A DNA stretch of 64,000 bases. Source: Escherichia coli (GTDB lineage: Bacteria > Pseudomonadota > Gammaproteobacteria > Enterobacterales > Enterobacteriaceae). How positions within the stretch are numbered: position 1 is the stretch's first letter; each line of letters begins with the position of its first letter. Shown here in pieces: positions 45,281 to 45,365 of the stretch. Under the pieces are notes generated by a model, which worked only from the letters and a program-made list of their open reading frames with translations, was not told where the DNA came from and did not search any database. The position numbers and the translations under genes were made by a program. Where the stretch lies: the NCBI RefSeq assembly GCF_003334785.1, contig NZ_QOWV01000005.1, one strand, 5' to 3'.

Positions 45281-45289
45281 CGGCTTTAT

Positions 45290-45365
45290 TCCTCTTCTGC
45301 GGGAGAGGATCAGGGTGAGGAAAATTTATGCCTCACCCTCACTCTCTTCGTAAGGAGAGAGGTTC
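45290..45365. repeat. GC-rich imperfect palindrome in the gcvH-gcvP intergenic region (possibly boxC-type; family unverified)
   Basis: gggagaggatcagggtgagg ... cctcaccctcactctc arms seen directly. Confidence 0.5.

Follow-up and report, generated by a model that had tools for sequence, protein, structure and literature searches.

The gcvTHP locus of E. coli is contained, on the + strand, in the 64,000-nucleotide stretch of DNA analysed here (the window), and a palindromic sequence lies in the spacer between its second and third genes, which raises the question of what this palindrome is and what it does to the genes on either side. A first-pass annotation had marked a GC-rich palindrome at 45285-45365, had related it to a second one downstream of gcvP, and had suggested a role in gcvP expression or in the differential stability of the gcvT/gcvH and gcvP messages. 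The genes involved are the following.

43773-44867, + strand, gcvT
44891-45280, + strand, gcvH, with stop codon at 45278-45280
45399-48272, + strand, gcvP
48539-49282, + strand, ygfF

A 118-nt spacer, 45281-45398, separates gcvH from gcvP. The segment 44740-48640 of the window corresponds to 3045800-3049700 on the reverse strand of MG1655, with 0 mismatches over 3,901 nt; because of this identity at gcvTHP, data published for K-12 are directly transferable to the window, and the conversion of 3' end coordinates from MG1655 was checked on the identical sequence. No repeat or RNA feature is reported by the NC_000913.3 annotation within the gcvH-gcvP spacer or within the one following gcvP.

The palindrome is real. 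Its structured core, 72 nt from 45290 to 45361, is enclosed by the interval originally marked, and its imperfect arms, 45292-45320 and 45331-45359, are 29 nt long each and 72% complementary. The octamer GGGTGAGG is found at 45313-45320 and its complement CCTCACCC at 45331-45338, and an identical octamer pair is located downstream of gcvP, at 48379-48386 and 48418-48425; 5 matches to the octamer occur in the window, against 1.22 expected, a number reached by none of 100 shuffles. The two elements were compared by pairwise local alignment, as the first-pass annotation had proposed, obtaining a score of 31, while dinucleotide shuffles score 14.7 +/- 2.4, with 1 out of 2000 reaching the real score, and none of 3341 other 76-mers from the window does so (maximum 23). 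The sharing of a core motif between the two elements is therefore borne out, and their likeness exceeds what the octamer and GC-richness account for.

The family to which both belong, not recognised in the first-pass annotation, is BoxC. BoxC/PIT repeats of E. coli were reportedly the subject of work by Bachellier et al. in the 1990s and by Hoyne et al. in 2000. The sequences, renamed PIT and later TMECO, follow the consensus CCCTCNCCC-N3-6-GGGNGAGGG-N3-GGGNGAGGG (PMC4666352). The post-gcvP element, 48353-48451, is a canonical inverted BoxC pair, TMECO 10+11, catalogued between ygfF and gcvP (Holder 2015 Table 1 and Table S2; PMC4666352). Its arms are listed below, together with those of the gcvH-gcvP element.

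48353-48388, + strand, left arm of the post-gcvP pair, BoxC/TMECO no. 11, type A, exact consensus match (nhmmer E = 2e-12)
48416-48451, - strand, right arm of the post-gcvP pair, BoxC/TMECO no. 10, type B, exact consensus at 48417-48451 (nhmmer E = 8e-10)
45290-45320, + strand, left BoxC-like arm of the gcvH-gcvP element, CCTCTTC-TGCG-GGAGAGG-ATCA-GGGTGAGG
45331-45362, - strand, right BoxC-like arm of the gcvH-gcvP element, read on the minus strand as CCTCTCTCC-TTAC-GAAGAGAG-TGA-GGGTGAGG

The left arm of the gcvH-gcvP element is a degenerate form of the BoxC consensus, identical at 25 of 31 nt to the canonical arm 48353-48388. The right arm, which on the plus strand reads CCTCACCC-TCA-CTCTCTTC-GTAA-GGAGAGAG and is separated from the left one by a 10-nt spacer, is identical to the canonical arms at 23-25 of 32 nt, so that each arm has 23-25 of 31-32 nt in common with them (75-80%). 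A profile HMM was built from the 23 published TMECO copies (Table 1) and used with nhmmer to search 128 kb of strand. In the whole window the post-gcvP arms rank 1st and 2nd, and the gcvH-gcvP arms 3rd and 4th, the left being matched at 45299-45320 (E = 0.012) and the right at 45362-45332 on the minus strand (E = 6.9, a weak match when taken alone); the two matches are adjacent and inverted, in the same head-to-head orientation as the post-gcvP pair.

The resemblance to the family extends to the three-block organization of the arm, made of a pyrimidine block, a short loop, a purine block, a second short loop and a further purine block, to the GGGTGAGG blocks facing the central spacer, and to the intergenic location. 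The differences from canonical copies are also evident: the blocks are 7-8 nt long instead of 9 and carry C-to-T and G-to-A changes, and the second loops, ATCA and TCA, match neither of the canonical ones, TTA and CCG. In MG1655, inverted BoxC pairs occur at five sites and always join a type A copy (TTA second loop) to a type B copy (CCG). A strict consensus pattern search of the window detects only 48353-48387(+) and 48417-48451(-), and nothing in the gcvH-gcvP spacer, and the element is missing from the catalogue of 23 MG1655 copies (Holder 2015, PMC4666352). REP consensus motifs (GCCGGATG..., ...CCGGCCTAC) were not found by motif classification in the E. coli spacer, where only BoxC-type motifs are present. 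At the level of sequence, these data support the view that the gcvH-gcvP arms are degenerate copies of BoxC/PIT/TMECO, of the same repeat family as the post-gcvP element.

Further evidence comes from the same junction in other genomes. Species-representative genomes were scanned with GcvH, giving at least 80 loci, and the spacer was extracted from 79 of them; Salmonella and Klebsiella are not among the 80 loci, and Salmonella is represented only by the sequence printed in S5 (PMC5927463). Among the 79 spacers listed, the interval from the gcvH stop to the gcvP leader is occupied by canonical BoxC pairs or single copies in relatives of E. coli, including Enterobacter cloacae, E. asburiae, Pseudocitrobacter, Buttiauxella, Siccibacter, Pluralibacter gergoviae and further Enterobacteriaceae. 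The strict consensus is found at the junction in at least six cases (E. cloacae, E. asburiae, Pseudocitrobacter, Buttiauxella, Pluralibacter and strain RIT691), the orthologous spacers matched by the strict pattern being L008, L016, L021, L024, L027 and L046. The E. coli element aligns colinearly with these canonical copies, which occupy the orthologous slot in other genera, and in a divergent Escherichia (L002) both arms have TTA as second loop. The homology of the E. coli element to BoxC is settled by this comparative evidence.

The sense RNA of the element is predicted to fold into three hairpins, A, central and B (-40.5 kcal/mol, z = -5.5), and no shuffled sequence folds as well; the one long hairpin of canonical BoxC pairs is here replaced by three separate ones. 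The hairpins and the features surrounding them are as follows.

45290-45309, + strand, hairpin A, stem 45290-45297/45302-45309, 8 bp including one G.U pair, UNCG-type loop UGCG
45312-45339, + strand, central hairpin, AGGGUGAGG / CCUCACCCU, stem 45312-45320/45331-45339, 10-nt loop
45342-45361, + strand, hairpin B, stem 45342-45349/45354-45361, 8 bp including one G.U pair, GNRA-type loop GUAA
45343, + strand, dominant 3' end of gcvTH RNA, 4 nt past the central hairpin, mapped in two independent term-seq sets
45362-45398, + strand, gcvP leader with Shine-Dalgarno AGGAA (45385-45389), outside the repeat

Folding energies are -12.6 kcal/mol (z = -3.7) for hairpin A, which begins 9 nt past the gcvH stop, -15.7 kcal/mol (z = -4.6) for the central hairpin, -28.3 kcal/mol (z = -4.9) for these two combined, and -12.2 kcal/mol (z = -4.3) for hairpin B. 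A three-helix consensus is common to 10 orthologous BoxC-type spacers, where 94.5% of the cells are paired, versus 51-72% with slid partners, and compensatory change is seen at 6 pairs; covariation support for the three helices is nevertheless modest, as palindromic repeats pair by construction. The antisense RNA of the E. coli element folds about 10 kcal/mol (10.2) more weakly than the sense RNA, because hairpins A and B each hold one G.U pair. This asymmetry was discarded as a general sign of RNA-level selection, since the corresponding differences span -4.9 to +5.6 in orthologues.

A scan of the spacer 45281-45398 predicted no terminator-like and no promoter-like site, which leaves both a canonical terminator and an internal gcvP promoter unsupported. 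No RNA family was detected by scanning 43300-48700 against Rfam at E <= 10: only sub-threshold chance matches were found, microRNA-like on the long downstream palindrome and whalefall-1 on hairpin A, the latter with 19.8 bits where the gathering score is 37.

Within the species the element is fixed. Of 5,426 complete E. coli genomes searched, every one has it, with at least 95% identity in all but one; in NZ_CP178634.1 a 52-nt palindrome-templated inverted duplication is found within it. Polymorphism was evaluated on 13 E. coli sequences, picked down the identity ranking, which define 8 haplotypes. Their 6 variable columns all fall in hairpin loops (hypergeometric P = 5.6e-6), five in the central loop and one in that of hairpin B, where the T/C variant at 45351 changes GUAA to GCAA and keeps the GNRA type; none was found, in the same 13 sequences, in stems, linkers or gcvP leader. 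The leader is kept across Enterobacteriaceae regardless of the upstream repeat, with invariant columns at the 3' end of the alignment, and in the listed spacers the ending ...ATTCACTGCACGTTTCAGGAACCATCGCTC is common to BoxC-, REP- and ERIC-bearing species.

An association of this hairpin with message stability and abundance is already known, in supplementary tables only. The gcvP-gcvH-gcvT operon is among 47 differentially decaying operons described by Dar & Sorek 2018 (PMC5927463), where, in S3 Table, decay regulation is assigned to the gcvH|gcvP pair and stabilisation to its upstream gene. For this pair the table gives 2.21 +/- 0.02 and 5.03 +/- 1.33 (PMC5927463), the former being read here as the stability ratio, from the inclusion criteria (a stability difference of at least 2-fold and an abundance difference of at least 2-fold), and the latter as the abundance ratio, from its reuse in S5. 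In S6 Table of the same study, a BW25113 term-seq 3' end is placed after ...GGGTGAGGAAAATTTATGCCTCACCCTCACT, a structure of -15.7 kcal/mol which is exactly the central hairpin (PMC5927463). Dar & Sorek describe such hairpins, in general, as devoid of a U tract and of bicyclomycin/Rho effect, and read them as blocks to 3'-5' exonucleases of the malE-malF type, adding that gaps between stability and abundance may stem from leaky termination or internal promoters (PMC5927463). The same end is found independently in Adams 2021 (PMC7815308), at 3049097(-), corresponding to 45343 in the window, with scores of 412,219 and 171,112. It occurs three times in Supplementary file 1 of that work, classed only as 'orphan', and its peak is about 11 times that of the gcvP terminator, which scores 36,065 (PMC7815308). 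The differential stability of gcvT/gcvH and gcvP surmised in the first-pass annotation is thus supported by published decay and 3' end data at this very site (PMC5927463 S3/S6; PMC7815308). No mutant study of the element was found in the literature searched, and no gcv entry is present in the TERMITe supplements.

On these grounds, we regard as probable that an old, decayed inverted BoxC pair has been fixed in the gcvH-gcvP spacer, where its RNA hairpins block exonucleases and stabilise gcvTH. In the gcvTHP transcript the element would fold into the three consecutive hairpins; once the gcvP portion has been cleaved or has decayed, 3'-to-5' exonucleases would trim back and halt at 45343, 4 nt past the central hairpin. 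The remaining species would be a gcvT-gcvH mRNA capped by hairpin A and the central hairpin, with about twice the lifetime and five times the abundance of gcvP mRNA. A single promoter would in this way yield less message for P-protein than for T- and H-protein, following the malE-malF REP paradigm. The hairpin is tied to stability by correlation; that it causes the stabilisation of gcvTH, and that the 45343 end arises by exonuclease blockage and not by termination, is the likely interpretation. As hairpin B lies past the mapped 3' end, the stable gcvTH species lacks it; this hairpin is as well conserved as the others and lies outside what the proposed model explains.

The gcvP gene has its own intrinsic terminator, as follows.

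48297-48317, + strand, gcvP intrinsic terminator, AAAGGCGC-TTCG-GCGCCTTTTTA, defined by sequence and by the mapped 3' end at 48317

The latter is the primary 3' end 3046123 of Adams 2021 (PMC7815308), and the post-gcvP BoxC pair sits beyond it. In the 79 genomes listed with a scorable gcvH-gcvP junction, no other one has a BoxC pair directly after gcvP; where any BoxC is found downstream of this gene, its distance is at least 650 nt. The observation that gcvP is bracketed by related palindromes therefore stands insofar as the two elements are related, being members of one family, and does not stand as a functional unit flanking the gene, as the downstream pair is past the terminator and the arrangement is not conserved in the genomes listed. 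The bracketing is an E. coli coincidence, without evident meaning.

The occupants of the gcvH-gcvP junction vary widely in the other loci. REP-type palindromes are found in Citrobacter, Lelliottia, Trabulsiella and some Enterobacter species, and ERIC-like elements in Citrobacter koseri, one C. youngae strain, Kluyvera and others. In most of the non-Enterobacteriaceae loci listed, gcvH is immediately followed by a plain GC hairpin and a T run, as in Photorhabdus, Providencia, Serratia, Yersinia, Dickeya, Pectobacterium, Shewanella and Idiomarina, and three Erwinia and two Rosenbergiella genomes have a spacer of 8-23 nt without hairpin. Differences are observed even within genera, as Enterobacter has either BoxC or REP, two Citrobacter youngae strains have REP or ERIC, and Pluralibacter has BoxC or REP, from which a fast turnover follows. 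Whatever its origin, a stable hairpin is located within about 6-12 nt of the gcvH stop in nearly every lineage listed.

Published RNA data bear on this junction in further species. In Salmonella Typhimurium, a REP-like hairpin with a term-seq 3' end after it occupies the same slot, and the gcvH:gcvP abundance ratio is 2.64 (PMC5927463 S5). This hairpin, like that of Citrobacter, precedes a conserved gcvP leader and belongs to an unrelated family (GTAGGCCCGGTAAGCG...CGCCACCGGGCA); the similarity to E. coli is therefore one of functional analogy, not of homology between elements. In Dickeya dadantii the junction, also directly after gcvH and with gcvT and gcvH exceeding gcvP, is an internal terminator made of a canonical GC hairpin and a T tract, for which 71 +/- 22% termination was measured (PMC9239193), whereas the E. 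coli structure is repeat-derived and has no T tract.

The Dickeya case suggests that in E. coli, too, RNA polymerase might stop after the central hairpin in some rounds, so that less gcvP would be transcribed, protection being secondary. The frequency of hairpins with a T run after gcvH outside Enterobacteriaceae agrees with such a hairpin-dependent, leaky termination, as does the fact that abundance differs more (ratio 5.0) than stability (2.2), so that some termination could be accommodated; two full-length RNA studies in E. coli are also cited in PMC9239193 for an internal termination site after gcvH. We nonetheless judge it unlikely as the main explanation. The tail CACUCUCUUCG has no U tract and the spacer scan is empty of terminator-like sites, the gcv operon was retained by Dar & Sorek after exclusion of operons with intrinsic-terminator motifs or known Rho termination (PMC5927463), and the bicyclomycin-sensitive regions in file 2 of Adams 2021 do not include the 45343 end (PMC7815308), absence from a list being weak evidence. 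In addition, PIT/BoxC reporter assays are described, in the account of Maher's work given by PMC4666352, as devoid of terminator activity, and a gcv entry is absent from the accessible text and supplements of the SMRT-Cappable-seq study of Yan 2018. Partial termination could also operate alongside exonuclease protection. That the fast exchange of repeats among Enterobacter, Citrobacter youngae and Pluralibacter reflects just an insertion hotspot, a spacer tolerating repeats or offering a target hairpin, with a functionless relic in E. coli and an incidental 3' end, appears more doubtful still. BoxC has no established function (PMC4666352), and the Erwinia and Rosenbergiella genomes manage without a hairpin; yet the element is fixed in all the E. 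coli genomes, whereas BoxC loci are unusually variable (PMC4666352), its sampled polymorphism is confined to loops, nearly every lineage listed retains a stable hairpin next to gcvH, and differential abundance is kept in Salmonella with a different repeat (PMC5927463).

The remaining explanations have very little probability. In one, the arms would act at the DNA level, forming an intrastrand triplex or cruciform and affecting replication or recombination, as might be suggested by the triplexes that canonical TMECO oligonucleotides form in vitro, by the hypervariability of their loci (PMC4666352) and by the inverted duplication found in NZ_CP178634.1; the blocks are here reduced to 7-8 nt and interrupted by A/T, suggesting a weaker potential for triplex formation, each of the stems A and B contains a G.U that in DNA counts as a mismatch, the locus shows stability in 5,425 of the 5,426 E. 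coli genomes, and no triplex is reported in vivo even for canonical copies (Holder 2015, PMC4666352). Translational control, to which we assign an equally slight chance, could be exerted either by hairpin A, hindering terminating ribosomes, or by a 24-codon ORF, 45328-45402, coupling translation into gcvP. REP sequences within about 15 nt of a stop codon are said to hinder terminating ribosomes (Liang, Rudd and Deutscher 2015), and the 9 nt between the gcvH stop and hairpin A fit this geometry; the ORF has a GAGG 7 nt ahead of its start ATG, and its stop codon TGA shares letters with the gcvP ATG (ATGA). Of the 12 other E. coli sequences sampled, however, 11 have ACG in place of this start ATG, for which reason a coupling uORF was rejected, the GAGG is buried in the central stem, and gcvH is more abundant and stabilised (PMC5927463), the opposite of the REP/stop-codon effect.

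Exonuclease protection by a decayed BoxC pair thus remains the preferred explanation. Speaking against it are the report, by Maher as conveyed in PMC4666352, that BoxC/PIT sequences have neither terminator or promoter activity nor known function, the lack of a strict BoxC consensus match, and the absence of sense/antisense asymmetry in most orthologues. The element shares with the protective 3' structures of Dar & Sorek (PMC5927463) a stable hairpin without U tract bounding a stabilised upstream segment, a term-seq end few nt past the stem, and a stabler and commoner upstream gene. It differs from them in its location within a spacer, 17 of the 26 cases being inside the downstream ORF, and in deriving from BoxC, not REP, with two further hairpins of the same repeat flanking the protective one.

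Other BoxC-type copies of MG1655 show a similar relationship with mapped ends. Adams Term-seq ends fall 3-4 nt past the hairpin at 847200, 3781065, 3959467 and 4231270, and about 10 nt past it at 632098. For 30 years BoxC/TMECO sequences have been investigated as DNA triplex motifs lacking a known function. It is conceivable, and offered here as a tentative extension that we hold to be rather less probable than the mechanism itself, that transcribed BoxC/TMECO copies are exonuclease-blocking RNA hairpins interchangeable with REP and ERIC, that the junction is a refilled 'socket', and that the E. coli copy has been domesticated. The socket would have been refilled by a leaky terminator, then by BoxC, REP or ERIC, the excess of gcvTH over gcvP output being kept. 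Domestication would imply that decay of the repeat was shaped by RNA-level selection, possible signs of which would be its G.U pairs, loops of UNCG and GNRA type, polymorphism restricted to loops, and the presence of three separate hairpins instead of one long hairpin.

Altogether, the palindrome is a real feature, correctly read at first sight: it belongs, as a degenerate relative, to a known repeat family, and does a job which had already been tabulated. What appears to be new is that the protective hairpin derives from BoxC, and that, from genus to genus, different repeat families have come to fill its slot. Two literatures which do not cite one another in this respect are joined by this identification, as the structure known as 'protective hairpin' from Dar & Sorek forms the central stem of a BoxC pair that has decayed, and neither Dar & Sorek 2018 (PMC5927463) nor Adams 2021 (PMC7815308) mentions its BoxC nature. 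The gcvH-gcvP element would account for the production, from one promoter, of more T- and H- than P-protein message, and the occurrence of at least five other BoxC-type MG1655 copies at Term-seq 3' ends hints at a general RNA-level role of these repeats when transcribed. The sharing of one operon junction by several repeat families and a plain terminator is a natural experiment, which bears on how intercistronic stabilisers evolve and replace each other.

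Published Term-seq 3' ends in MG1655 are located at other copies of the BoxC type, all of them outside the window, at MG1655 positions 847200 (minus strand), 3781065 (plus), 3959467 (minus), 4231270 (minus) and 632098 (plus) (Adams 2021, PMC7815308). The ends lie 3-4 nt past the CCCTCNCCC/GGGNGAGGG hairpin at 847200, 3781065, 3959467 and 4231270, and about 10 nt past it at 632098. The copies at 847200 and 4231270 are degenerate, their sequences falling outside the TMECO consensus. The same data set contains further 3' ends in the gcv operon, which were placed in the window by mapping the MG1655 coordinates onto it:

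43717 (MG1655 3050723), 3' end in the 5' UTR of gcvT
43838 (MG1655 3050602), 3' end 65 nt into gcvT, score 105,625
45682 (MG1655 3048758), 3' end 283 nt into gcvP

Attenuation or RNA processing may occur at these points, both where the operon begins and in the early part of gcvP.

A fifth occurrence of the octamer is found within gcvP:

46817-46824, minus strand, GGGTGAGG within the gcvP coding sequence

Octamer counts and a BoxC profile search of the window showed it to be isolated, with neither a partner nor a BoxC context, and it was taken as a chance match.

Among 5,426 complete E. coli genomes, a single one, NZ_CP178634.1, carries a structural variant of the element:

1412-1594 of locus L086 (NZ_CP178634.1, E. 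coli VTB96775v), 52-nt insertion inside the element

The insertion consists of a duplicated central hairpin and an inverted extra copy of hairpin B, and looks like the product of a palindrome-templated template-switch event. A more divergent spacer is found at 4891-5003 of L002, a locus titled 'Escherichia coli strain SCPM-O-B-8794', where several stem positions are unlike those of the window, with compensating changes, and the loop is UUCG where the window has UGCG. Since every one of the 5,426 RefSeq E. coli genomes shares at least 90% identity with the window, and 5,425 share at least 95%, L002 probably represents a cryptic Escherichia lineage.

In relatives, the repeat occupying the gcvH-gcvP spacer varies. 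Of two Citrobacter youngae strains (loci L003 and L004), one has a REP and the other an ERIC, and within Enterobacter BoxC is found at two loci (L008, L024) versus REP at a third (L009). Such differences in repeat family within one genus or named species show that replacement at this site is very fast. A Providencia MAG (L076, 4894-5338) has a spacer of 445 nt, containing three tandem ERIC-like copies.

Two features precede or overlap the start of gcvP:

45328-45402, 24-codon ORF, starting within the central loop 7 nt after a GAGG and closed by a TGA overlapping the gcvP ATG (ATGA)
45362-45398, gcvP leader, 37 nt, TTCACAATTCACTGCACGTTTCAGGAACCATCGCTC

The ORF is probably spurious, because of the 12 other E. 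coli sequences sampled, 11 have ACG in place of its ATG. The leader does not vary among the sampled E. coli, and in the spacers of the fetched loci it is nearly invariant across genera of Enterobacteriaceae, whether the upstream repeat is BoxC, REP or ERIC. This conservation exceeds what a Shine-Dalgarno sequence alone would need, so that the leader could be bound by an sRNA or a protein.
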